A stretch of DNA of 64,000 bases from Candidatus Buchananbacteria bacterium (GTDB lineage: Bacteria; Patescibacteriota; Patescibacteriia; Buchananbacterales; UBA6539). The notes under the pieces are model-generated. The model was not told the origin of the DNA. It ran no database searches and worked only from the letters and a program-made list of their open reading frames with translations. Positions 19,183 through 32,009 of this stretch are shown here, piece by piece (position 1 is the stretch's first letter; the number at the start of each line of letters is the position of its first letter). The stretch is taken from assembly GCA_013359225.1 (NCBI GenBank), contig JABWCG010000001.1:360021-424020 (forward strand). Reading direction: 5' to 3'. A program made the position numbers and the translations under genes.

Positions 19183-19980
19183 TTAAAGCAGTTTAAAATT
19201 GCTCACCAAATATCCAACGCCAAAAGGCCCTTCATACGACAGAATTTCTGGCTCAATATTGAGAGACTCCAAAACTCCGCTCAAAATAATCAAAGACCGT
19301 AAACCATCCTCTTTAACTTCGGCGGCTTCAGCCGGACTGATTTTTTGCAGAGCAGCAAAATCTTTTTTCTTAATAGCCGTCACCACCTTTTGATCAAACT
19401 CCTTGGCTTTTTCCGAATAACCGCCCGGAGCGTCTTTAGTCAGCGTGTGGGCAAGGTCGGCAGAAGCAATCACTGCAAATCGCTTATTAATTCGTGAAAG
19501 TTCGCGATACAAAAAATTGCCAAATTTAAAATGCTGCTGATAGTCAAGCCCGGAGTGGGTGATAGGGATAATCGGAATGTTCTTCAAATGCTGAGTTAAA
19601 AAATAAAGCGGCACTGAAAAACCGTAATCAAGCTCCTCGGGGCTAGTCATGACTACCGGCGCTTCCTGATTACTTTCATCGGCGGCGCGAATTTCCTGAA
19701 TTGACATATAGTCGCTTTTAAAGGAAAGCTCCAGCTCAAAATCACCAAAATCTTTAAAATTAGACTTATACTCAGCGCTAAAATTAATATTAAAAGACTC
19801 GTCAAAAACCTGGCCGTGCGGAGAAACAATCAAAATACTTTCCGGTTTTGCCGCATACAACTGCTGCTCCAAGCTTTTCATTGCTTCTTCAGTTTTCTTT
19901 AATTTTTTGAGATTATCCTTGCCGATTTTTGGTATTAATACCGGCGGATGAGGAGTAATCGCCGCAAAAACGATTGGCAT
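19183..19980 (-). CDS. LigB-type (class III extradiol dioxygenase subunit B / Memo-like) family protein
   Basis: Motifs AITPHPPVLIP, SPHG and IASADLAHT match the metal-binding His pattern of the LigB/MEMO1/AmmeMemoRadiSam-B superfamily. Function is uncertain. Confidence 0.5.
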   Translation of the reverse strand: MPIVFAAITPHPPVLIPKIGKDNLKKLKKTEEAMKSLEQQLYAAKPESILIVSPHGQVFDESFNINFSAEYKSNFKDFGDFELELSFKSDYMSIQEIRAADESNQEAPVVMTSPEELDYGFSVPLYFLTQHLKNIPIIPITHSGLDYQQHFKFGNFLYRELSRINKRFAVIASADLAHTLTKDAPGGYSEKAKEFDQKVVTAIKKKDFAALQKISPAEAAEVKEDGLRSLIILSGVLESLNIEPEILSYEGPFGVGYLVSNFKLL

Positions 19981-19990
19981 ATATATAAAT

Positions 19991-21328
19991 TTATTCTACA
20001 TCTTCGCCTAACGGATGAACAGTCAAGGCTTGAGCAGAGGTAGTAATAATATTATCCCATTTATAGCTAAATTTGGCAAATGCCGCCTCAGTTTTAACCC
20101 ACCGCCGATAACCTCCGGCGACAACATACACTTTCGAATCTCCCTGGGCCTGAATCAACTCGCCATCACGGAATTTAACCGGGTCGCCAGTTTGATATTG
20201 ATCAAGAATTTCTGGCGCCACCTGTGTTAAAACTTTTTTTGGAAACCGTGATTCCATAATTTCACGAGCGTAAATCGGATGTTTTAATCCAGCCTCAACA
20301 AAATAAACGCCCCCTGTTTTATTATCCTGAAGCAGTGCTCCGGTCGGATAGGCTGTTTCTACCGTAATATCTTTTCCGTATTTATACCCGGCTAAGTCAG
20401 AAAATTCTACCACTTCAATTTCTTCTGGATTAAAACCAATTACCCGAAAAACTTCCGGCGAGGTGATGTGCCGAAGTTCATCGTCAACTAATAAATACAC
20501 TTTACCGTCCGGATCCTGGAGTAGGGAATAGTTATGAAATTGAATACTCGGGCCAATTTCGTACTTTTCAAGATCAAGCTTGCTAATGGTTAATATTTTT
20601 TTGGGATCAAACCGCGAAAGCAAGGCTCCCCAGGAAGTAATTAAACGCCTGGTACCGTACTGAATCAGCCACACTGCCGGACTGTCATTAGTTTTAACCA
20701 GTGAGCCATCCGGAAAATCGCGGCCCCAATAATTTTGCCATAATTGCCAAAACCGATTGTTGCCGGAATAGTGCGGGGTATAGTTGTACAATCCCGCGGT
20801 TGCTTTCGTCAGCGGCGTCACCAACCAACCGTCGATGGCGTAGTCGTTGCCAGCTTGATAATGCCAGTCACCGGGATTATCCATATATTGTCTAAACTGC
20901 CAGGCAGCACCGTCAACCTGCTTGCCAAAACCTAAAGCTTTTGGACTGCACGAACCGCTATCCGGACAACGATATCCCATCGCCTTATCAAGTTGATTTT
21001 GGCTCGGCGATGAATCGCCAATCAAACTTTGCTCTTTTTGCAATGTCACCAACAAAACCTTAGGGCTAATTTTACTTTCAATCGCCGCCTGCCAGATGAT
21101 CTCGGCAGCAGGACGATTCACCCCTAAATAATCGGGAAAAGAACGCCAGGCAAGAGAACTGCCTTTTTCCTCAAGAAATTGCTGAATTTCAGCGAGATTT
21201 AAAGATAAGTGGTCAGTCATTTCCTCATCACTAATAACAAAACTGGGATTAAAAAAAATCTCGGCCTGGGCGGCGATTGGGAAAATAATTAACTCTAAAA
21301 TTATGAGTAGCAATACTGCTCTTTTCAT
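19991..21328 (-). CDS. secreted hypothetical protein (signal peptide)
   Basis: Start set at the Met of MKRAVLLLIILELIIFPIAAQA, a Sec signal peptide. The 445-aa product has no recognised domain and is Trp/Tyr-rich (YNYTPHYSGNNRFWQLWQNYWG). Confidence 0.55.
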   Translation of the reverse strand: MKRAVLLLIILELIIFPIAAQAEIFFNPSFVISDEEMTDHLSLNLAEIQQFLEEKGSSLAWRSFPDYLGVNRPAAEIIWQAAIESKISPKVLLVTLQKEQSLIGDSSPSQNQLDKAMGYRCPDSGSCSPKALGFGKQVDGAAWQFRQYMDNPGDWHYQAGNDYAIDGWLVTPLTKATAGLYNYTPHYSGNNRFWQLWQNYWGRDFPDGSLVKTNDSPAVWLIQYGTRRLITSWGALLSRFDPKKILTISKLDLEKYEIGPSIQFHNYSLLQDPDGKVYLLVDDELRHITSPEVFRVIGFNPEEIEVVEFSDLAGYKYGKDITVETAYPTGALLQDNKTGGVYFVEAGLKHPIYAREIMESRFPKKVLTQVAPEILDQYQTGDPVKFRDGELIQAQGDSKVYVVAGGYRRWVKTEAAFAKFSYKWDNIITTSAQALTVHPLGEDVE

Positions 21329-21408
21329 CTTTTTATTATAGCATAAATCATGATCATTCTCATAGTGAAAAACTGGCTTGAAAGCCAAAATTTTGCTAAA
21401 ATATAACT

Positions 21409-21978
21409 ATGAAAAAACGAGTTTTTATTGCTATCAATCTACCGACCGAAACGAAAGATGAGCTTGGTCAGTTATTAAAAAAACTAAAAAAAATAAACCC
21501 TCAGCAACAAATTCGTTACGTGAAGGCAGATAGCCTACACCTGACCTTACATTTTTTAGGTGATCGTGGCGCCGAGGAAATTTCAACTATAAAAAAAGTT
21601 ATGCGCGACATTGCCAGCAGTCATTCACCATCAACTATTATCACTGGCGATATTGATGCATTTCCTAATTTGCAATCACCAAAAGTTGTTTATTTGTCAA
21701 TTATGGAAAAGCCTAAATCAAGTATCTCCAGCCTACAAAAAAAATTAGGATTTACGCTTGAACAAGCGGGTATTGATGTCGACCATCGCGCTTGGCAGCC
21801 TCATCTAACACTTGCACGAATTAACAGTCCGACTGTTTTTAAAACACAAAATGCTTTTCCGCCAATAATTGAAATTCCAGCTACTCACATTACCTTAATG
21901 GAAAGTAACTTAACGTCATACGGTGCGCAGTATACCGTGCTTGAATCATTTAGTTTTTCTAATCATGGACAAAATTGA
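21409..21978 (+). CDS. thpR: RNA 2',3'-cyclic phosphodiesterase (2H phosphoesterase, LigT/ThpR)
   Basis: Two H-x-T/S-x motifs (HLTLHFLGD and HLTLARI) at the spacing typical of the 2H family. Confidence 0.8.
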   Translation: MKKRVFIAINLPTETKDELGQLLKKLKKINPQQQIRYVKADSLHLTLHFLGDRGAEEISTIKKVMRDIASSHSPSTIITGDIDAFPNLQSPKVVYLSIMEKPKSSISSLQKKLGFTLEQAGIDVDHRAWQPHLTLARINSPTVFKTQNAFPPIIEIPATHITLMESNLTSYGAQYTVLESFSFSNHGQN

Positions 21979-22750
21979 AATTCTGGGAATCAAAATTGAT
22001 AATTTATCACTGCAAGAAGTTTTAGAAAAAATAAAACGCTTTTTAGATTCAGATCAACAGCACTATGTTGTCACACCAAATCCCGAGTTTATTGTTGCCA
22101 GTCAAACCGATGGACATTTTAAAGAAATTTTAAACTATGCCGACATCGCCGTTGCTGACGGCATCGGTTTGGTAAAGGCGGCAAAATTTTCAGGCAAAAG
22201 ACTTCAGCGGGTCACCGGTGTTGATTTGGTCTGGGCGGTGTGCGAATTAGCTGAACAAATTAATTGTTCAGTTTATTTACTTGGCGCTAAAGGAACTGTT
22301 GCACGTCGCGCCGGAACTGTCCTACAAGAAAATTTTAAAAATTTAACCATTGCCGGCGCCGAAAGCGGGGGAGAGATTAACGACCCCAAAGAAATTAATT
22401 TTGACATTGTTAATAAAATTAACGCCAGCCAAGCAAAAATTTTATTTGTGGCGCTGGGCCACGTCAAACAAGAAAAATGGATCTTTTACCATTTAGATAG
22501 ATTAAAAAATGTTAAAGTGGCAATTGGCGTTGGCGGCGCCTTTGATTATATCTCCGGCGAAGTCGTACGAGCGCCGCTATTTTTAAGGCGCCTTGGACTG
22601 GAATGGCTCTTTCGTCTGGTCACTCAACCGCAGCGCTTTAAAAGAATTTTTAACGCCACAATAGTTTTTACCTTTTTGCTGATCAAAAAAAAATTTTTAG
22701 ACTTTTTTCGAAAAGAAAATAACGATATCTCAACTCCCGATAAGCCTTAA
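21965..22750 (+). CDS. WecB/TagA/CpsF-family glycosyltransferase
   Basis: The ILGIKIDNLSLQEVLEKI ... YVVTPNPEFI N-terminus and overall length fit the family. The start is moved to ATG 21965 (MDKIEILG), giving a 14-nt overlap with thpR. Confidence 0.8.
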   Translation: MDKIEILGIKIDNLSLQEVLEKIKRFLDSDQQHYVVTPNPEFIVASQTDGHFKEILNYADIAVADGIGLVKAAKFSGKRLQRVTGVDLVWAVCELAEQINCSVYLLGAKGTVARRAGTVLQENFKNLTIAGAESGGEINDPKEINFDIVNKINASQAKILFVALGHVKQEKWIFYHLDRLKNVKVAIGVGGAFDYISGEVVRAPLFLRRLGLEWLFRLVTQPQRFKRIFNATIVFTFLLIKKKFLDFFRKENNDISTPDKP

Positions 22751-22816
22751 AATTAGGCCTGTTTTAAGCTATTTGGCCTATTTGTAAAAAAAACATAAAC
22801 CTAGTAAGATAACCCT

Positions 22817-24244
22817 ATGACTAAAAAGATAATAACCAGATTCGCACCCAGTCCGACCGGATTTGTCCACGTTGGCAGTTTGCGCACCGCTTTATATAAC
22901 TATCTATTTACCCGAGCTAACAAGGGTAAATTTTATTTACGAATTGAAGACACCGACCAGGAACGAAAAGTCGATGGAGCCGTTGAAAACCTACTGTCAA
23001 CGCTAAAAATTTTTGATTTGCTTTGGGACAACAAAAAAATTATGGTTCAGTCTGAACGGCTGGAAATGTATAAACAGGCAGCGGATCAACTTGTTAAATC
23101 AGGACACGCTTATTATTGTTTTTGTTCTAAAGAACGGCTGGAAAACCTGCGCCAGATTCAATCCAAAAAAGGCTTGCCGACAATGTATGACGGAAACTGC
23201 GCCAATTTGGACCAAGCCGAGATTGCGGCTAGCCTGAAAGAAAAACCGTTTGTAATCAGATTTAAAGTTCCGAAAACCGGCCAAACAGAATTTCATGATT
23301 TAATTCGGGGCAAAATCAGTTTTGACAATAAAATTTTAGATGACCCGATTATCCTGAAATCCGACGGATTTCCAACCTACCATTTAGCATCGGTTGTTGA
23401 CGATCATGAAATGGAGATTAGCCATGTTATCAGAGGAGAGGAGTGGTTGCCCTCAACACCAAAACATTTACTGCTTTATAAAGCGTTTGACTGGCAGGCA
23501 CCGGCATTTGCTCACTTGCCGCTTTTATTAAATCCGGACAAATCAAAATTATCAAAACGACAAGGTGATGTCGCCGTGGAAGATTACCTCAAAAAAGGCT
23601 ACCTGCCCGAAGCCTTGGTCAACTTTGTTTTACTGCTCGGCTGGAACCCTGGTACCGATCAAGAGATATTCAACCTAGATGAGATGATTAAACATTTTCA
23701 GCTTGAAAAAGTTAACAAATCAGGAGCAGTGTTCAACACTCAAAAATTGGACTGGCTTAATGGTTATTACCTGCGAAAAAAATCCAGCGCTGAATTTGCC
23801 AAACTTTGCCAGCCGTTTTTCGAACAAGCCGGGATTAAAACTGAATTAAAACAATTAGAAAAAATTGTTGCAACCGAGCAAGAAAGAATTAAACACCTTG
23901 ATGAAATCGTTGAGGCGACTAAATTTTTCTTTACCTCAGAACCGTACGATCCGGAATTACTGATTTGGAAAAAATCAACCAGACAGCAAACCATTGCCAA
24001 CCTCAAAACTATTTTAGCCAGACTGGCTCAAATTGACGAAAAAAATTGGAACCAAAAAAATCTGGAGGAAGAGATTATGACATTTTTGAAAGAAAATGAT
24101 TATGCTACCGGCGATATGCTCTGGCCAATGCGCGTGGCGTTAACTGGACGCAAATCAAGTCCGGGAAATTTTGAAGTAGCCCAGGCGCTTGGTAAAACCG
24201 AAAGCCTTAAAAGAATTGACCAGGCCATTAAAATTTTAGCGTAA
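22817..24244 (+). CDS. gltX: glutamyl-tRNA synthetase
   Basis: Class-I HIGH-type motif (PSPTGFVHVGSLRTAL) and KMSKS-type motif (KLSKRQG). Confidence 0.9.
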   Translation: MTKKIITRFAPSPTGFVHVGSLRTALYNYLFTRANKGKFYLRIEDTDQERKVDGAVENLLSTLKIFDLLWDNKKIMVQSERLEMYKQAADQLVKSGHAYYCFCSKERLENLRQIQSKKGLPTMYDGNCANLDQAEIAASLKEKPFVIRFKVPKTGQTEFHDLIRGKISFDNKILDDPIILKSDGFPTYHLASVVDDHEMEISHVIRGEEWLPSTPKHLLLYKAFDWQAPAFAHLPLLLNPDKSKLSKRQGDVAVEDYLKKGYLPEALVNFVLLLGWNPGTDQEIFNLDEMIKHFQLEKVNKSGAVFNTQKLDWLNGYYLRKKSSAEFAKLCQPFFEQAGIKTELKQLEKIVATEQERIKHLDEIVEATKFFFTSEPYDPELLIWKKSTRQQTIANLKTILARLAQIDEKNWNQKNLEEEIMTFLKENDYATGDMLWPMRVALTGRKSSPGNFEVAQALGKTESLKRIDQAIKILA

Positions 24245-24283
24245 ACTTGATTTTATCAAAATTTTATGCTATAATGATAGATA

Positions 24284-25534
24284 ATGAAAGAAAATAAAAA
24301 GAAAAATTCCACATCAAAAAATATTTTAGCAAAGAGCCTGATTATCACCTTTGTGCTGGCTCTTATTTTTATTAACCCAGGACCAGGTAAGGCTGAGGAA
24401 GATATCGGCGAATTAAACCGCTCAATTGAAAGCAAGCGCCGAGAAATCGATGCTATTCAAAAACAAATTGATGAATACGCCCAGCAAATCAAAGCAAAAA
24501 AACAGGAGGCGAGGGGACTGCAAAATCAGATTGCTATTTTAGACAACCAAATTGCCAAGGTTAACCTGGATGTTGAGGCAACTCAAAAACTTATTGAACA
24601 AACTAATTTAGAAATTCAAGCGACTAATATCCAAATTCAGGAACTTGAAGTTAAAATTGATAAACAAAAAGAAAAGATTGTTGAATATTTAAGATTAATT
24701 TACAAAGCGGATCAGGTTAGTTATTTTGAAATCTTACTGGTAAACAATTCATTCTCTGATTTTTTTGACCAAATCAAATATTCCGAACAGATTAATACTG
24801 ACCTCAAAGAAAGTCTGGACGAGTTAAAAACCGATAAAACGGATTTTGAAACTCAAAAACTAAATCTTGAGGCAAAAGTTACGCTTGAAGAAGAATTAAA
24901 ACAAAAACTCCAGGAGCAAAAGTCAGAGCTAGAAGAACGCAATGCAGCTAAGGGTATTTTATTAGTACAGACAAACTTAACTCAACGACAATACCAAAAC
25001 CAACAATATCAGCTGCAGCTTGAACAGCAGCAAATCAACTCCGATATTCTGGGACTTGAAAAAACTGTCCGAAAAAAACTTGAAGATCAGGCGGCTGAAG
25101 AAAAATTCAAAAATTTTGGGCCGGCCCGATTAGCTTGGCCAGTTGATCCATCACGGGGGATTAGCGCTTATTTTCATGATCCTGATTATCCTTTCCGCTA
25201 TATCTTTGAACATCCAGCTATTGATGTTCGAGCTTCTCAAGGTACTGCCATTAAGGCCCCTGAGGCTGGCTATGTTGCCAGAGTAAAATTTGCCGGCGAT
25301 ACTAGTTATGCATACGTGATGTTGATTCATAACGATGGTCTTTCAACAGTCTTTGGTCATATCTCGAAACCGCTGGTAAAAGAAGATGAATATGTCAGTA
25401 AGGGGCAAGTTATTGCTCTGTCCGGCGGAATGCCGGGCGGTATCGGTTCCGGCAATTTAAGTACCGGCGCCCATCTTCATTTCGAAGTGCGTTTGGATGG
25501 TATCCCAGTAAACCCGTTAGAATACCTGCCATAA
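24284..25534 (+). CDS. M23-family peptidase with N-terminal coiled-coil (EnvC-like murein hydrolase activator/peptidase)
   Basis: A long coiled-coil N-terminus and a C-terminal LytM/M23 domain (HPAIDV...GAHLHFEVRLDGIPVNP). Confidence 0.8.
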   Translation: MKENKKKNSTSKNILAKSLIITFVLALIFINPGPGKAEEDIGELNRSIESKRREIDAIQKQIDEYAQQIKAKKQEARGLQNQIAILDNQIAKVNLDVEATQKLIEQTNLEIQATNIQIQELEVKIDKQKEKIVEYLRLIYKADQVSYFEILLVNNSFSDFFDQIKYSEQINTDLKESLDELKTDKTDFETQKLNLEAKVTLEEELKQKLQEQKSELEERNAAKGILLVQTNLTQRQYQNQQYQLQLEQQQINSDILGLEKTVRKKLEDQAAEEKFKNFGPARLAWPVDPSRGISAYFHDPDYPFRYIFEHPAIDVRASQGTAIKAPEAGYVARVKFAGDTSYAYVMLIHNDGLSTVFGHISKPLVKEDEYVSKGQVIALSGGMPGGIGSGNLSTGAHLHFEVRLDGIPVNPLEYLP

Positions 25535-25537
25535 AAA

Positions 25538-25942
25538 ATGAGTGATAATCTTAACAGTAAAATCAGCTCGCTTGTTATTTGGACTCTGTTTGCCGGGCTG
25601 GTTTTTTTATATATTCGATTCTTTCCACACCTTAAAACGATTGGGGAAATTGTAATTTCAGCCTTACCGTCGATTATCTTTTTTACCATTGGTATTTTTA
25701 TTTCCCGACGAGATCAAGATCGCATTACACAAGCCAGAAAAAAAGATTCAACACAAATTTCTCTAACCACCACCCTTGAACAGGCTTTAAAACACGATTT
25801 ATTAACCTATTTAGTACCGGTAATAATCTTAGCAACGCCTTTTTTATTTGATCAAATCCCAAACGTTACTACCGTCATTCAGGCAGGAACTGCTTTTCTC
25901 GTGCTCGCGTACTTAAAGTTGATATACTGGGGCGAATTATAA
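25538..25942 (+). CDS. hypothetical membrane protein (134 aa)
   Basis: About 4 TM helices. It starts 4 nt after the M23 peptidase gene. Confidence 0.4.
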   Translation: MSDNLNSKISSLVIWTLFAGLVFLYIRFFPHLKTIGEIVISALPSIIFFTIGIFISRRDQDRITQARKKDSTQISLTTTLEQALKHDLLTYLVPVIILATPFLFDQIPNVTTVIQAGTAFLVLAYLKLIYWGEL

Positions 25943-25945
25943 AAT

Positions 25946-26001
25946 TTGACAAAGATATTTTTTTATCTTACTATTTAGATAGTTGTCTAAATATCTAAAT
26001 A
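25946..26001 (+). promoter_or_regulatory. promoter with overlapping palindromic operator upstream of the ArsR/SdpR-like gene
   Basis: -35 TTGACA at 25946-25951, a 17-bp spacer, and -10 TACTAT at 25969-25974. An 8-bp perfect inverted repeat TATTTAGA-n6-TCTAAATA (25972-25993) overlaps the -10, with an extra tandem TCTAAATA at 25994-26001. Confidence 0.6.
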
Positions 26002-26041
26002 TTTTAGCCTTAAATAACCGCCAAAAAGGGGATACTAGATT

Positions 26042-26308
26042 ATGAGCTTAAACAAAACCTTTAGCGCCCTTTCTGATCCAACAAGACGTAAAATTTTAGA
26101 ATTACTCAAAAAGAAAGATCTATCGGTAAATGATATTGCGCTTAATTTTTCAATATCATTACCGTCCTTATCTCATCACCTTACAATCTTAAAAAACGCT
26201 CAATTAGTCACGTCACAGCGCCGGGGACAACAAATGATTTATTCTTTAAATCTAAGCGTATTTGAAGAAATTGCCAAACAATTATACGGCTTTTTTAATA
26301 AAAAATAA
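26042..26308 (+). CDS. ArsR-family transcriptional regulator, SdpR-like
   Basis: ALSDPTRRKILELLKKKDLSVNDIALNFSISLPSLSHHLTILKNAQLV matches the ArsR-family winged HTH and the SdpR subgroup pattern. It is directly followed by an SdpI-family gene. Confidence 0.8.
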   Translation: MSLNKTFSALSDPTRRKILELLKKKDLSVNDIALNFSISLPSLSHHLTILKNAQLVTSQRRGQQMIYSLNLSVFEEIAKQLYGFFNKK

Positions 26309-26324
26309 ACTTACAATAAATAAT

Positions 26325-26987
26325 ATGAAACATCCATTAACCCCAAACATTAAAACTGAAATTATGCCAGTTATCACTCTAATTCTCCTGGCAGTTATCA
26401 GCGTCTATTTTTATAATAATTTTCCTAATCAAGTACCGACTCATTGGAATTATCGAGGAGAAGTAGATGGATATTCAGGCAAAGCCTTTGGAGCTTTTGG
26501 AATTCCGGTAATCATCGTCGTAATGTATGTAATGTTTTTACTGTTCCCATTGCTAGACCCAAAAAAAGACCGTTACCAACAATTCAAAAAGACATACCAC
26601 GTCTTCAAAACTATGATCATAGTTGTGATGGGGTTGATATATTTCTACAGCGGTTTGGCGGCTTTAGGGTATCCTGTGTCAATCAACATTGCTGTTCCAG
26701 CAACAATTGGATTATTATTCATAGTGATGGGTAACTACATGTCTAAAATAAAAAGCAACTGGTTTATTGGTATTAGGACTCCATGGACATTATCCAATGA
26801 AGAAGTTTGGAACAAAACTCATCGGGTTGGCGGAAAAATCTTTATCGCCCTAGGTGCCTTTATGATTATTGGGATATTTTTGCCAGACAAGATCTACTGG
26901 CAGGGTTTTATAGTAAGCCTTTTAGCATCGGTAGTCGGCATGATGGGGTATTCGTACTGGATATTCAAAAAGATTAATAAAAATTAA
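26325..26987 (+). CDS. SdpI/YhfL-family membrane immunity-type protein (DUF1648 + SdpI domains)
   Basis: VPTHWNYRGEVDGYSGKAFGAF matches the DUF1648 motif, and NWFIGIRTPWTLSNEEVWNKTHR matches the SdpI/YhfL signature. Six TM segments. The start is set at ATG 26325 (MKHPLTPN). Confidence 0.8.
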   Translation: MKHPLTPNIKTEIMPVITLILLAVISVYFYNNFPNQVPTHWNYRGEVDGYSGKAFGAFGIPVIIVVMYVMFLLFPLLDPKKDRYQQFKKTYHVFKTMIIVVMGLIYFYSGLAALGYPVSINIAVPATIGLLFIVMGNYMSKIKSNWFIGIRTPWTLSNEEVWNKTHRVGGKIFIALGAFMIIGIFLPDKIYWQGFIVSLLASVVGMMGYSYWIFKKINKN

Positions 26988-27082
26988 CGCTAAATAAAGT
27001 TTTACTATCTTTTAACCCCGCCTCCACACACGAGAGGAGGGGTTAAAAATTACTTTATTTATTAATCTTTTTGAAATATATA

Positions 27083-27450: not shown

Positions 27451-28311
27451 CTAACTACCAAATAATTTATTGATTTCCTGATATAGCTGCTGTATTTGCC
27501 GACCGTGAAAACCAAGGCGACTCAGTAAAGTATCTTGGTTGATCAACTGTTTACATAAAACGATATTATGATGAAGTAAATCCCGAACCTGCTGATGATT
27601 CAGGCTAATCAAAACAGTAATTGGGTATAACCCCCTATTTTCAATAAGTTCCTGAAGATTATCACCCTCACTGGCGTAATCCCAGCCAATTGCTTTAATC
27701 CCAACACAGCCGCAATAAATTTTTACTTCACCAGTCACTTTGGTGTTTGTTACCAGCCAACTTTGTAGCGTGGCTTCACGCGGTTTGGCGCCCTTATTTT
27801 TTTTAATATTCCAAGCCTCTTTAATATCTAAAAACCGAGCGTACGTGTACAACGCATCCTTACTGCCGGTTTTACCACCGCCATGAGAATGAAATTTAGC
27901 CTCAATGATAGCGTGAATATTTTTTTCATACTTTTCAGCAATCACGTCCACCTCATGAGAAATACATTTACCTCTAACAATAACATTGGTTTTTGTTTCA
28001 TACCCTTGTTCCTCCAATAAAGCCGCAAAATACTTTTCAAACGGAAAACCATCGGGGCCAAGACGCATAATTGCCTTTTTAAGATTATAACGAGCCGCAT
28101 AACTCTTGTCCTCTGATTTTAAAAGATCAAAAGCCAACCGATGAATCTGGGCCGTTGTAGTGCCTGGCTTTATTTTTGGTCTTATCTGGCTGATTACTCT
28201 TTTTGCTACCCCGCTAGCCACACCAGAAGACATCATTGATTTCTTTAATTTTATAATTGAAAAAATTTCTTTTTCTCCACTTGCTTTTTTAATTAAAATT
28301 TTTTTTGCCAT
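27451..28311 (-). CDS. ATP-cone domain protein fused to Mrr-like PD-(D/E)xK restriction-endonuclease-fold nuclease domain
   Basis: The N-terminal 90 aa (KILIKKASGEKEIFSIIKLKKSM...AARYNLKKAIMRL) resemble an NrdR/RNR ATP-cone. The central region (FEKYFAALLEEQGYE...HEVDVIAEK...IIEAKF) matches the Mrr_cat D...(D/E)xK core. The last 100 aa are unassigned. The start is set at ATG 28311 (MAKKIL), 10 nt after the ftsQ stop. Confidence 0.6.
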   Translation of the reverse strand: MAKKILIKKASGEKEIFSIIKLKKSMMSSGVASGVAKRVISQIRPKIKPGTTTAQIHRLAFDLLKSEDKSYAARYNLKKAIMRLGPDGFPFEKYFAALLEEQGYETKTNVIVRGKCISHEVDVIAEKYEKNIHAIIEAKFHSHGGGKTGSKDALYTYARFLDIKEAWNIKKNKGAKPREATLQSWLVTNTKVTGEVKIYCGCVGIKAIGWDYASEGDNLQELIENRGLYPITVLISLNHQQVRDLLHHNIVLCKQLINQDTLLSRLGFHGRQIQQLYQEINKLFGS

Positions 28312-28321
28312 ATATAAAATA

Positions 28322-29188
28322 TTACTTCCAAAACACCTTCTCGCCAAACCGCAAATCAATATAATCAAGTTTTGACCGGTCATTAGCGCGCTGTTTTAAA
28401 ACAATGGCTAATGAATTAATTTGAGATGTAACAGAATTTTGAAGGCTAAATTTTACCAGCCAGCCTTCTTGGGTAACGAGCGTAATATCTTGTGCGGCCG
28501 GTCGATTAATCTCATAATGTGCAATTTCAAAATCCGCCTCGGTCCTCAGGCGACTTGTCAACTCAAGAATGAAAGCAACCGTTTCGGGCGACAATATCGA
28601 TTCACCAACGTTCACTTCTCTATTGCTCAAATCTTTTATTAAAGGGTATTGACTTGCATTAACGCCAGAACGTATCACATTGCTACCGCTTTCTGTGTTC
28701 ATTACCAATGATTGGGGGTCAATCAGCTTGGTCGCCCTTCCTTCTAAATCAAGGTAGTATTGATTATTGGCGTTAGCCCAAATCACGCCCGAATTATTTC
28801 TTTGCAAATCAACTTCAATCTGATTAAAATATTTTTTCTTAATTTTAAAATCGTTCAATAAATAAGTTTGTTGGATTCTTTCTTCAGCCTGTTTCTTGTT
28901 AAAGAAAAAAATATTTGATTGATGAAACAATAACCAACGGCGTTCATCTAACTGGTCAGCAATCAGATTTTTTATTTCTTGATCATTTATAAACTCAACC
29001 CCTTTAACCGTAACGGACGTAATCTTGAAGTATTTCAACGTATCAAAAAAATAAGCACTCAATACCACTGCCAATAAAACTCCCACGAACACCAAGCGCT
29101 TTTTCTTTTTTAATGCAGTTTGACCGTCTTTTTTAGAAAAAAAAGGGTTATTAAGTTTTTTTCTCTGATAATCTATTCTTCTAGCCAT
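28322..29188 (-). CDS. ftsQ: cell division protein FtsQ/DivIB
   Basis: A single N-terminal TM segment, a POTRA-like region and a beta domain. It sits immediately downstream of ddl, as in dcw clusters. Confidence 0.65.
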   Translation of the reverse strand: MARRIDYQRKKLNNPFFSKKDGQTALKKKKRLVFVGVLLAVVLSAYFFDTLKYFKITSVTVKGVEFINDQEIKNLIADQLDERRWLLFHQSNIFFFNKKQAEERIQQTYLLNDFKIKKKYFNQIEVDLQRNNSGVIWANANNQYYLDLEGRATKLIDPQSLVMNTESGSNVIRSGVNASQYPLIKDLSNREVNVGESILSPETVAFILELTSRLRTEADFEIAHYEINRPAAQDITLVTQEGWLVKFSLQNSVTSQINSLAIVLKQRANDRSKLDYIDLRFGEKVFWK

Positions 29189-29191
29189 AAA

Positions 29192-30343
29192 TTATTTATA
29201 CCAGTCTTCTTTTGGCTGATAAGAAGTGGCAAGACTATTCTTTTCGCGATGTCGTTCAAGCGCTAAATCAATCAGTTGATCAAGTAATTTAGAATAGCTA
29301 AGTCCGGAAGCCTCCCAAAGTTTTGGATACATTGAGATAGAGGTGAAACCTGGAATTGTATTGACTTCATTTAGGTAGACTTTATGATTTTTCTTTTTTA
29401 CCAAAAAATCAACCCTGGCTAGTCCGGAAAGGTTCAAGGCTCTAAACGCCATTTCGGCGATTAATCTGATTTCTTTAATGGTCTTTTTCGGCAACCGAGC
29501 CGGTATTACTGCTTGAGATTTGCCGTCAACATATTTAGCATCGTAATCATAAAATTCGTTGGAAGAAATAATCTCACCAGGCACCGACGCTTTTGGTTTA
29601 TCATTGCCCAAAACCGAAACTTCAATTTCTCTAATATCTTCTATCCCCTGCTCAACAATAATTTTTCGGTCATATTTTAATGCATCAATAATTCCATTGA
29701 TCAACTCTTTTCGATTATGGCATTTACCGATACCAACGCTTGAACCAAGATTGGCCGGTTTTGTAAACATCGGGTACCCCAACTTTTTTTCCAAACGACT
29801 AATTATTTTTGATCGATTATTTTTGAATTCCTTTTTAAAAAACCAATCATACCTAACGCTCGGCAATCCCGCTAGATCAGTTAATTGTTTTTGGACAACC
29901 TTATCCATTGCCAAAGCCGACCCCAAAACCTCTGAACCAACGTAGGCAATATTTGCCATTTCCAATAAGCCTTGCAACTTACCGTCTTCGCCGTAAGTAC
30001 CATGAACCAACGGAAAAACAACATCAATTTCGGTCATTGTTGGCTTGAAATTTGAAGTTGATTTCAAACTGCTTGTTTTAATATTCATCAAACTTTTTTC
30101 GGTTGGGTCAGGCGCAAAAATTGATTTAAAAGGGAGCTGCCTCATCCCCTCTTTTAAAAAATAAACTGCTTGGTTACCACTAATCCAGCGGCCTTCTTTG
30201 GTGATACCAATAGGAATAACTTGGTACTTTTTTTTGTCCAAAGCCTTCATTACGGAAACGGCTGAAACAATAGAAACTTCGTGTTCGCCGGAACGACCGC
30301 CAAAAATTACCCCAACCTTTATTTTTTTACTAATTTTAGCCAT
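29192..30343 (-). CDS. ddl: D-alanine--D-alanine ligase
   Basis: The N-terminal domain ([16 protein letters not shown]), an ATP-grasp core and the C-terminal motifs ([11 protein letters not shown]) are present. Confidence 0.9.
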
Positions 30344-30359
30344 TTTTTTACTATACTAA

Positions 30360-31607
30360 TTACTTTTTCTCAATTTTCTTAAACCCACAATATTTTTGCA
30401 GCGGTTTAGGAATATTCACGCTGCCATCTTCATTTTGAAACTGTTCTAAAATTGCCGGGAACAATCGACTGGTTGCTAACCCCGAAGCGTTTAAAGTATG
30501 AACGAACTCATTCTTACCGGTCTCTGGATTTTTGAACCGAATGTTTCCTCTTCGAGCCTGATAATCAAGGGCGTTAGAAACGCTGCTAACTTCTTTATAA
30601 ATCTCCATACTTGGTATCCAAACTTCAACATCAATTGTTTTAGCCATTGCCGATGAAGCGTCACCAGCTGCCAGTTGCACCGTTTGATAATGCAAACCCA
30701 ATCCTTCAACTAAGCTGGAGGCATTCTCAATCAATTCATCAAAAGATTCCCATGATTGTTCTGGCTTAGCATAATGAAACATTTCAATTTTATTAAATTG
30801 ATGACCACGAATCATCCCCCGCTCTTCCTTGCGGTACCCCCCGGCTTCACGCCGAAAACAAGTTGAATATGCCGCGTATTTTATCGGCAAGTCGTCAATG
30901 GCCAAAATTTCATCACGGTGATAATTACCAAGCATCATTTCACTAGTGGCATTAAGGCAAGTTTTGTCCTGAGTCCAAAACAAGTCATCGCGGAATTTAG
31001 GCAAATGGCCAGAAGTATAGGCCGATTCTTCAGTTAATAAAAACGGCGGAATCATAAAAATATAGCCATTCTTCTGGTGAAATCCAATAAAATAATTAAG
31101 TAATGCCCATTCTAAAATTGCCCCCTGGCCACGATACACCCAAAAACCAGTACCAGACATTTTGACCGCTCGCTCATAATCAATAATGCCTAAATCGGTT
31201 GCCAGCTGGTAGTGATCTTTTGGCGTAAATTTAAAGTCGGGTTTTTTACCAAAACTTTTTAAAACTTTATTATTCTCCTTCCCACCAGCCAAAACATCAT
31301 CAGCCGGTAGATTTGGCAGGGCAGAAAGTTTCTCTTTAAATTCAGCCTCTACTTCCCTAACTTTATCATCTAATTTTTTAATCTGATCGCCGACCGATTT
31401 CATTTTTGCAATGACTTCCGGACTTGGTTTAGTCTTAGAAAATTTATTTCGTTCAGCCTTAAGGTTTTCGGATTCTTGTAATAATTTTCGACGCTGATCG
31501 TCAATGGCCAAAATTTCATCAAGTTGCAAATCTTTTTTATCCAGGCGCTTCAGCAAAGCTGCTTCTACTTCCGCTCGCGACTCCCTAATTTTATTAATGT
31601 CTAACAT
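30360..31607 (-). CDS. serS: seryl-tRNA synthetase
   Basis: An N-terminal coiled-coil arm plus class-II motifs (FRREAGG..., GLATSR). Confidence 0.9.
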   Translation of the reverse strand: MLDINKIRESRAEVEAALLKRLDKKDLQLDEILAIDDQRRKLLQESENLKAERNKFSKTKPSPEVIAKMKSVGDQIKKLDDKVREVEAEFKEKLSALPNLPADDVLAGGKENNKVLKSFGKKPDFKFTPKDHYQLATDLGIIDYERAVKMSGTGFWVYRGQGAILEWALLNYFIGFHQKNGYIFMIPPFLLTEESAYTSGHLPKFRDDLFWTQDKTCLNATSEMMLGNYHRDEILAIDDLPIKYAAYSTCFRREAGGYRKEERGMIRGHQFNKIEMFHYAKPEQSWESFDELIENASSLVEGLGLHYQTVQLAAGDASSAMAKTIDVEVWIPSMEIYKEVSSVSNALDYQARRGNIRFKNPETGKNEFVHTLNASGLATSRLFPAILEQFQNEDGSVNIPKPLQKYCGFKKIEKK

Positions 31608-31613
31608 ACGTGA

Positions 31614-32009
31614 TTATTTTTTAGCTTTAAGTTTCGAAGATTTATAGATCTCTGGTTGATATGCTTCCAATCGAACAATATTGATTTCTGGAAATTTAGC
31701 CGCTAAATTTCCAGTAAATACCTCTTGATCATACCCCAGACAAATAACCTGCGGCCGTTTTGTCCTGATAATTTCATGCGGGTCACCCTCACCACCCAAA
31801 ATCACCTCATCGGCGACACCGGCTTCCTGCACCGCCACCAAACGTTCATCTTCTGAAAAGTCTGGCTTTTTACCCTTAATCGTTTCAACATTTCTGTCCC
31901 GAGCAACAACCACAATTAAATAATCACCATAGGCTCTGGCTTGCCGAAAAAAATCAAGATGGCCATCGTGCAAGATATCAAAAGTTCCAAAAACCATTAC
32001 ACGCTTCAT
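31614..32009 (-). CDS. cytidylyl/adenylyl-transferase-like nucleotidyltransferase (HxGH family)
   Basis: VFGTFDILHDGHLDFF carries the HxGH nucleotidyltransferase motif, as in FAD synthase RibL or glycerol-3-phosphate cytidylyltransferase-type proteins. The substrate is unknown. Confidence 0.7.
   Translation of the reverse strand: MKRVMVFGTFDILHDGHLDFFRQARAYGDYLIVVVARDRNVETIKGKKPDFSEDERLVAVQEAGVADEVILGGEGDPHEIIRTKRPQVICLGYDQEVFTGNLAAKFPEINIVRLEAYQPEIYKSSKLKAKK

Follow-up and report, generated by a model that had tools for sequence, protein, structure and literature searches.

The subject of this analysis is a pair of adjacent genes, sdpR (26042-26308) and sdpI (26325-26987), on the forward strand of a stretch of 64,000 nucleotides (nt) from a metagenome-assembled genome of Candidatus Buchananbacteria (Patescibacteria), hereafter the window, whose numbering is used throughout. 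The genes code for a small winged-helix regulator and a six-helix membrane protein, and we consider it probable that they constitute a self-contained, self-repressed SdpR/SdpI operon following the model established in Bacillus subtilis. Autorepression by SdpR is the best-supported reading of the promoter because the predicted operator occupies the -10 and transcription start region of the promoter, co-occurs strictly with sdpR across related loci, and co-varies with the recognition helix of the regulator. The cassette as a whole, with its promoter, operator, and both genes, is common to Firmicutes and hundreds of species of Patescibacteria.

The sdpR product (88 amino acids [aa]; NUM25396.1), which bears only the generic GenBank name "winged helix-turn-helix transcriptional regulator," is an ArsR/SmtB-type winged-helix protein of the SdpR subfamily. 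Residues 6 to 82 of the 88 match the NCBIfam model NF033789 ("autorepressor SdpR family") with 109.6 bits against a cutoff of 100, and the Pfam HTH_5 model is matched with an E value of 5.6e-13. The recognition helix reads ...SLPSLSHHLTILK... (SLSHHLTILK), and its two histidines are the sole ones in a protein that lacks cysteine altogether, so that the ligand sets of the metal-sensing ArsR/SmtB proteins are missing. Equivalog models of metal sensors score 34 to 42 bits on SdpR, far under their cutoffs of 115 to 155; these models of metal- or sulfite-sensing proteins include BigR and CmtR. The nearest solved structures are those of SrnR (7p6f; E = 1.9e-13), CzrA, and SmtB.

The sdpI gene starts 16 nt past the sdpR stop in the same orientation and codes for a 220-aa protein of the SdpI/YfhL family that is 100% identical to NUM25397.1, a protein of the same metagenome-assembled genome already named "SdpI family protein" in GenBank. 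A TTG start at 26262 was also considered for this gene and is unsupported, since alignments with homologues begin at residue 1 of the 220-aa form. Profile searches retrieved the SdpI domain (PF13630) at residues 141 to 210 with 74.9 bits (cutoff, 28.2) and DUF1648 (PF07853) at residues 18 to 64 with 62.9 bits (cutoff, 28.7), and the signature NWFIGIRTPWT occupies residues 145 to 155 (26757-26789). A first-pass annotation of the window had proposed an SdpR/SdpI pair on the grounds of an ArsR-family gene followed by a six-transmembrane protein with DUF1648 and this signature. All of these elements were recovered, and the profiles assign the regulator to the SdpR type and the membrane protein to the SdpI family rather than to a different one.

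An AlphaFold2 model of SdpI, computed with 34 relatives as input, has six long helices (residues 9-32, 53-77, 81-113, 120-141, 159-185, and 188-219), with a predicted local distance difference test score of 91.1 and a predicted template modeling score of 0.84. Both of the motifs described for the family by Povolotsky et al. 2010 (PMC2910880) are matched. The motif 1 region (residues 33-58, FPNQVPTHWNYRGEVDGYSGKAFGAF; 26421-26498, forward strand) is modeled as a beta-hairpin between helices 1 and 2 with strands at residues 36 to 41 and 47 to 52, is predicted to face outward, and contains four residues, H40, W41, G45, and D48, that are invariant in the 34 relatives. The motif 2 region (residues 129-177; 26709-26855, forward strand) is the loop between helices 4 and 5, which includes a short helix, is predicted to be cytoplasmic, and has N145, W146, F147, G149, I150, T152, P153, W154, and T155 invariant in the same relatives. 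The motif 1 loop has one lysine or arginine against two acidic residues, whereas the opposite, motif 2 side is rich in lysine and arginine. On the basis of the model and this charge distribution, motif 2 and both termini are predicted to lie inside and motif 1 outside, in agreement with the published topology of the family. We found no solved structure with the fold of SdpI. A word-index search with SdpI recovered 2913 homologues, the top 120 of which are 49 to 100% identical to it with full-length coverage, and the family comprises 7,211 representatives after clustering at 50% identity (E ≤ 0.001). Some representatives (P0129, P0135, P0238, and P0259) are 450 to 650 aa long, with two SdpI-like stretches or fused domains, which agrees with the published 12-helix and fusion variants.

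For a comparison across relatives, one genome per species was scanned, with at least 570 relatives matched, and the best 80 loci (609 kb), here given L numbers, were kept. About half of them are labeled as Patescibacteria (Buchanan-, Falkow-, Komeili-, Ames-, Doudna-, and Saccharibacteria and Paceibacter), and about 30 further loci are titled "uncultured Gammaproteobacteria." The SdpR/SdpI genes and operators of the latter records (L007, L009, L013, L014, and about 25 more, entered as "uncultured Gammaproteobacteria bacterium" in third-party assemblies) resemble those of the Patescibacteria-labeled loci, and their titles look like placeholder taxonomy. With the window included, the set amounts to 81 loci and 62 sdpR promoters (61 related ones plus that of the window).

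An sdpR homologue, 48 to 80% identical to that of the window, lies directly upstream of sdpI on the same strand in 57 of the 80 related loci; four more have an insert between sdpR and sdpI, and the remaining 19 have no sdpR within 4 kb. The gaps between the two genes mostly measure -8 to +30 nt. No conserved small peptide gene was found in the long gaps, which contain repeats, hairpins, and, once, an open reading frame (ORF) for a putative four-helix bundle. This 131-aa ORF (3556-3951 of L015) sits between sdpR and sdpI and may resemble the four-helix-bundle "23S rRNA intervening-sequence" proteins; the long gaps of L041, L068, and L027 hold tandem or dispersed short repeats. When the ORFs of all 81 loci were clustered, only sdpI (81 loci) and sdpR (62 loci) emerged as conserved, the next real family being a 261-aa protein in 18 loci, and no third gene is conserved beside the pair. 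The restriction of conservation to these two genes indicates that the pair is a self-contained two-gene unit. In the 19 sdpI-only loci, where another regulator was sought upstream of sdpI, the neighbors are heterogeneous, and nothing consistent was found.

Upstream of sdpR, a consensus scan revealed a sigma-70-like promoter on the forward strand, comprising the -35 hexamer TTGACA (25946-25951), a 17-nt spacer, and the -10 hexamer TACTAT (25969-25974), which together match 10 of the 12 consensus positions. The -10 hexamer abuts the predicted SdpR operator (25975-25998, forward strand), which has three half-sites, namely, TTAGA (25975-25979), TCTAA after six bases (25986-25990), and TCTAA after another three (25994-25998), and reads TTAGA-TAGTTG-TCTAA-ATA-TCTAA. 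Its extended palindromes span 25972 to 26001, and the expected start of transcription falls within the operator. The perfect 8-bp inverted repeat that had been reported here, TATTTAGA (25972-25979) and TCTAAATA (25986-25993) with a 6-nt spacer, is indeed present. The additional tandem half-site that was said to overlap the -10 box also exists, as a further copy of TCTAAATA at 25994 to 26001, but the overlap belongs instead to the left arm of the repeat, where TACTAT runs into TTAGA, and the extra copy lies downstream within the transcribed leader. That leader is about 60 nt long and carries a Shine-Dalgarno-like AAGGGGA, read from the sequence, at 26026 to 26032 (forward strand), 9 nt ahead of the sdpR ATG. 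The sdpR start codon of about 20 related loci (L018, L022, L035, L050, L051, L078, and others) comes 0 to 5 nt past the operator, and the predicted 5' untranslated region consists of about 20 nt of operator sequence without a Shine-Dalgarno motif.

Comparison of the promoters revealed strong conservation of this arrangement. Among the 62 sdpR promoters, 56 retain 13 or more of the 15 core bases in TTAGA-N6-TCTAA-N3-TCTAA, right after the -10 box. In the related loci, the first TTAGA invariably follows the -10 box (usually TATAAT or TATTAT) without a gap, and most of the 61 promoters have a TTGACA-like -35 element at an equal distance. The exact TTAGA-N6-TCTAA occurs as a single copy within the window and 54 times in the 609 kb of related sequence, where 53 of the copies belong to sdpR promoters and the 19 sdpI-only loci contain none. 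The same site is found in Firmicutes: in Clostridium butyricum, as a perfect 12-6-12 palindrome made up of four half-sites, TAGATATTTAGA-AAATCA-TCTAAATATCTA; in a toxin-free ("orphan") pair of Bacillus cereus, as TTAATATTTAGA-AAAATA-TCTAAATATTAA; in Bacillus sp. N5-665, where TTAGATAAATATCTAAATGTCTAA comes after TAATAT; and at the sdpR promoter of Clostridium estertheticum, as a close variant. In L025 (3620-3665), the operator is partly duplicated (TATAATTTAGATAGTTAGACAATTATCTAAATATCTAAAT), giving an extra upstream TTAGA half-site.

The SdpR proteins encoded beside the toxin genes sdpABC, in Staphylococcus simulans, B. cereus DW444, and Bacillus thuringiensis, have the helix S-I-S-Q-H-L, and their promoters carry TTAAG-N6-CTTAA, with the variant TTAAT-N6-CTTAA-N3-CCTAA in S. 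simulans. All SdpR proteins with SHHL, from orphan pairs of Firmicutes and from Patescibacteria alike, pair with TTAGA/TCTAA. The sites compared with 25975 to 25998 of the window were L085:2100-2146, L090:640-682, and L092:540-584. Hence, as far as sequence comparison can tell, there appear to be two SdpR specificity classes, SHHL/TTAGA and SQHL/TTAAG, distinguished by a single-residue and two-base co-variation. Taken with the conservation, the near-exclusive occurrence at sdpR promoters, and the sharing with Firmicutes, this makes the palindrome very probably the SdpR operator and supports the original suggestion that it is a plausible one. A regulator of Nocardia named SdpR binds its own promoter, as determined by electrophoretic mobility shift assay and footprinting (PMC12185567). 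In the open-access literature, we found no paper joining SdpR and SdpI with "operator," nor one joining SdpI with Patescibacteria.

On the basis of these observations, a mechanism can be conceived in which SdpR, as a minimal, metal-site-free winged-helix dimer of the ArsR type, binds the three-half-site operator. With the operator adjoining the -10 box and lying across the transcription start, bound SdpR would block RNA polymerase and keep both sdpR and sdpI at low levels. SdpI would sit in the membrane with its two ends in the cytoplasm, the motif 1 hairpin outside, and the basic motif 2 loop inside. By analogy with B. subtilis, an extracellular or membrane-borne cue might then cause SdpI to capture SdpR at the membrane, whereupon the promoter would be freed and more SdpI would be made, amounting to a feed-forward protective response. 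In B. subtilis, such sequestration of SdpR has been described, and it is the second half of SdpI to which the binding of SdpR has been attributed (PMC2910880).

Several points weigh against this model. The core of motif 2 is as well conserved in 16 sdpI genes that have no sdpR beside them as in the 62 that do. Because of this, motif 2 probably also has a role beyond SdpR docking, in the core function of the protein, unless the regulator of those genes is encoded elsewhere. Perfect 8-bp inverted repeats with a spacer of 0 to 10 nt number 62 in the window, and 8.7% of simulated 99-nt regions of the same local composition contain such a repeat, which rules out the repeat ahead of sdpR as significant in itself; its significance derives from the conservation across species. 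Only three SQHL cases, two of which are close relatives, underlie the co-variation of helix and operator, and the likeness to the B. subtilis pair was judged by profiles and published motifs. Further, B. subtilis SdpI is the sole characterized member of the family (PMC11995493), and none is from Patescibacteria; given that the SHHL/TTAGA class differs from the toxin-linked SQHL/TTAAG class, the mechanism may not fully carry over.

The best-surviving alternative, which we nevertheless regard as unlikely, is that SdpR belongs among the ordinary ArsR repressors, which sense a ligand, a redox state, or a metal and leave their DNA upon binding a small molecule, with SdpI as its regulated transport, enzymatic, or structural target and no capture of the regulator. 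Most ArsR/SmtB proteins act by allosteric release from DNA, and the nearest structures, SrnR, CzrA, and SmtB, belong to this superfamily, but the 88-aa SdpR, free of cysteine, lacks a ligand set of the alpha-3N or alpha-5 type, and being almost all winged-helix core, it leaves scant space for a sensing site. It also scores above the SdpR subfamily cutoff and far below those of the BigR and CmtR equivalogs. On the side of SdpI, the invariant polar residues H40, D48, D78, N145, T152, T155, and R167 would fit a ligand-binding or catalytic site, the motif 2 core is retained equally well in sdpI genes without sdpR, and about 24% of the related sdpI genes lack any sdpR within 4 kb.

The remaining question is whether a toxin belongs to the system. 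A word-index search with the SdpC of S. simulans returned just seven proteins, the three with an organism name being staphylococcal, and more diverse SdpA, SdpB, and SdpC profiles were therefore built. With queries from six plasmid loci, used in tblastn and as hidden Markov models of six to seven sequences across all six frames, we found no homologue of SdpA, SdpB, or SdpC in the window or the 80 related loci (best E = 0.02), nor was the SdpC Pfam model PF26137 matched by any of the 14 neighboring ORFs (19183-25942 and 27451-32009). The first-pass annotation was thus correct in finding no sdpC-like toxin gene in the window and in calling the module an orphan one. Its view of this state as interesting in a reduced genome is largely undercut. 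Among plasmids, SdpC-family genes occur solely in those of Bacillus (33 records), Staphylococcus (4), and Niallia (1), SdpI homologues on plasmids extend also to Clostridium, Thermus, and haloarchaea, and SdpR/SdpI pairs lacking a nearby toxin are a routine annotation in RefSeq. Because the toxin is narrow and SdpI wide in distribution and toxin-free pairs are routine, the orphan condition, already implied by Povolotsky et al. 2010 (PMC2910880), is the norm of the family and no peculiarity of this genome, which removes most of the interest that had been attached to it.

A second alternative holds that a cognate operon for an SdpC-like or other secreted toxin lies elsewhere in the genome, making the pair a classical toxin-immunity module. 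Within this genome, the toxin search spanned the 64-kb window, part of a contig measuring at least 601,517 bp, and the Bacillus plasmids L088, L089, and L091 carry sdpABC without an adjacent sdpRI, so toxin and immunity genes can be unlinked. We still consider this proposal quite improbable in view of the negative SdpA/B/C searches across the window and the further 609 kb, the lack of any third gene conserved next to the pair, the limitation of plasmid SdpC to three genera against the wider spread of SdpI, the return of just seven proteins, staphylococcal where an organism is named, by the S. simulans SdpC query, and the membership of the toxin-linked SdpR proteins in a different operator and helix class. 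An SdpC-type toxin is an unlikely cue for the self-repressed operon proposed here. Finally, that the pair is a mobile antiphage defense or addiction module instead of an envelope-signal system is highly improbable: the cassette does occur in differing genomic neighborhoods across lineages and on plasmids, and in the window it adjoins a restriction-endonuclease-like gene (27451-28383; ATP-cone and Mrr_cat), but PADLOC-DB yields only generic winged-helix matches (Csa3/CasR type) for SdpR and none for SdpI, conservation beside the pair does not extend to any integrase, transposase, or phage gene, and in close relatives it is syntenic with gltX, the M23 peptidase gene, ddl, and ftsQ.

The family, the pairing of the two genes, and the six-helix architecture are already known, having been published in 2010, and the membrane protein is named in GenBank. 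What may be new is a cross-phylum operator consensus with two specificity classes, together with the wide retention of the cassette in Patescibacteria. The consensus TTAGA-N6-TCTAA(-N3-TCTAA), joined to the -10 box, extends from Firmicutes to Patescibacteria, and SdpR/SdpI is one of the few regulated membrane modules kept across many of the ultra-small lineages of the latter, with at least 570 species-level genomes matched, SdpC toxins being far narrower in distribution than SdpI. We tentatively raise the possibility, which at present we would not favor, that the SHHL/TTAGA cassettes represent an ancient, portable membrane-signal module responding to a general cue other than the SdpC toxin. 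If this were true, the cannibalism system of Bacillus would be a specialized offshoot with a retuned helix and operator (SQHL/TTAAG), and episymbiotic ultra-small bacteria would use the module to sense a host- or community-derived membrane-active compound or the state of the membrane, providing a simple two-part sensor in organisms that are hard to culture.

The pair is surrounded in the window by housekeeping genes, namely, gltX, a gene for a PcsB-like M23 peptidase, a WecG/TagA glycosyltransferase gene, ftsQ, ddl, and serS, and this gene order is shared by 6 to 8 of the 80 loci, the close relatives, of which four are labeled Buchananbacteria. A 134-aa membrane protein without a family match is encoded at 25538 to 25942 (forward strand), beginning 4 nt past the peptidase gene (24284-25534). 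The same small gene stands behind the peptidase gene in six related loci, which suggests that its product is a conserved partner of the M23 peptidase. On the other side, the reverse-strand gene at 27451 to 28383 codes for a 310-aa protein with weak matches to an ATP-cone, to an Mrr_cat restriction endonuclease core, and, at the C-terminal end, to an AF1548-like domain, the last of which alone passes its Pfam cutoff; NCBIfam and PADLOC gave no match. Judged by these matches, its predicted architecture, situated near the pair, is an unusual nucleotide-sensing, nuclease-like one. Between the convergent sdpI and nuclease-like genes lies a GC-rich hairpin (27010-27048, no strand assigned), 23 nt past the sdpI stop. 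The segment from 26985 to 27075 folds with -26.2 kcal/mol (z = -5.55; 0 of 200 shuffles as stable). The hairpin has a T-run ahead of it and an A-run behind it, the reverse of a bidirectional intrinsic terminator. As it lacks a U-tract on either strand, it is not called a terminator, and the terminator scan made no call; going by the predicted fold, it may possibly mark a transcript end. Rfam and tRNA scans of the window returned nothing.

Among known systems, the archetype is sdpRI of B. subtilis, the immunity-signaling operon of the sdpABC cannibalism system, in which, as in the window, an ArsR-type autorepressor gene lies directly upstream of the gene for a six-helix SdpI; the window proteins pass the curated profiles and have both published SdpI motifs. 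The window and the 80 related loci differ from it in the absence of sdpABC and in the host, which belongs to the Patescibacteria and is not a spore former. Other members of the family point beyond toxin immunity. YfhL, the B. subtilis paralogue of SdpI, belongs to the same Pfam family but has no dedicated toxin and is under sigma-W rather than an adjacent SdpR (PMC2910880), and TrpP of Corynebacterium glutamicum, a three-helix protein corresponding to the C-terminal half only, likewise has no dedicated toxin (PMC11995493); together they indicate roles for the family other than immunity to SdpC. C. glutamicum, unlike the window, has no SdpR homologue. On the regulator side, SmtB, CzrA, and SrnR share with SdpR the winged-helix fold and the repression of their own operons from an inverted repeat in the promoter, whereas the SdpR of the window has no cysteine and no metal-ligand set and falls far under the metal-sensor cutoffs.

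The toxin-linked pairs on plasmids of S. simulans, B. cereus DW444, and B. thuringiensis (L085, L090, and L092) have sdpR and sdpI in the same order as the window, and their proteins are 48 to 52% (SdpR) and 30 to 34% (SdpI) identical to those of the window, the values being 52% and 34% for the S. simulans pair beside sdpABC and 48% and 30% for B. cereus DW444. Their operators share the geometry of that in the window, with 5-bp half-sites 6 bp apart next to the promoter, but these loci carry toxin genes and combine S-I-S-Q-H-L with TTAAG/CTTAA, in contrast to S-L-S-H-H-L with TTAGA/TCTAA in the window. The orphan pairs of RefSeq on C. butyricum pNPD4_2 and on B. cereus and C. estertheticum plasmids (L082, L083, and L084) have no sdpABC nearby. 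They are from a different phylum, and C. butyricum keeps a fourth, outer left half-site at the place taken by the -10 box in the window and most Patescibacteria. Yet, they share with the window the SHHL helix and TTAGA-N6-TCTAA, with SdpI up to 46% identical, and are the closest functional class to the pair described here.

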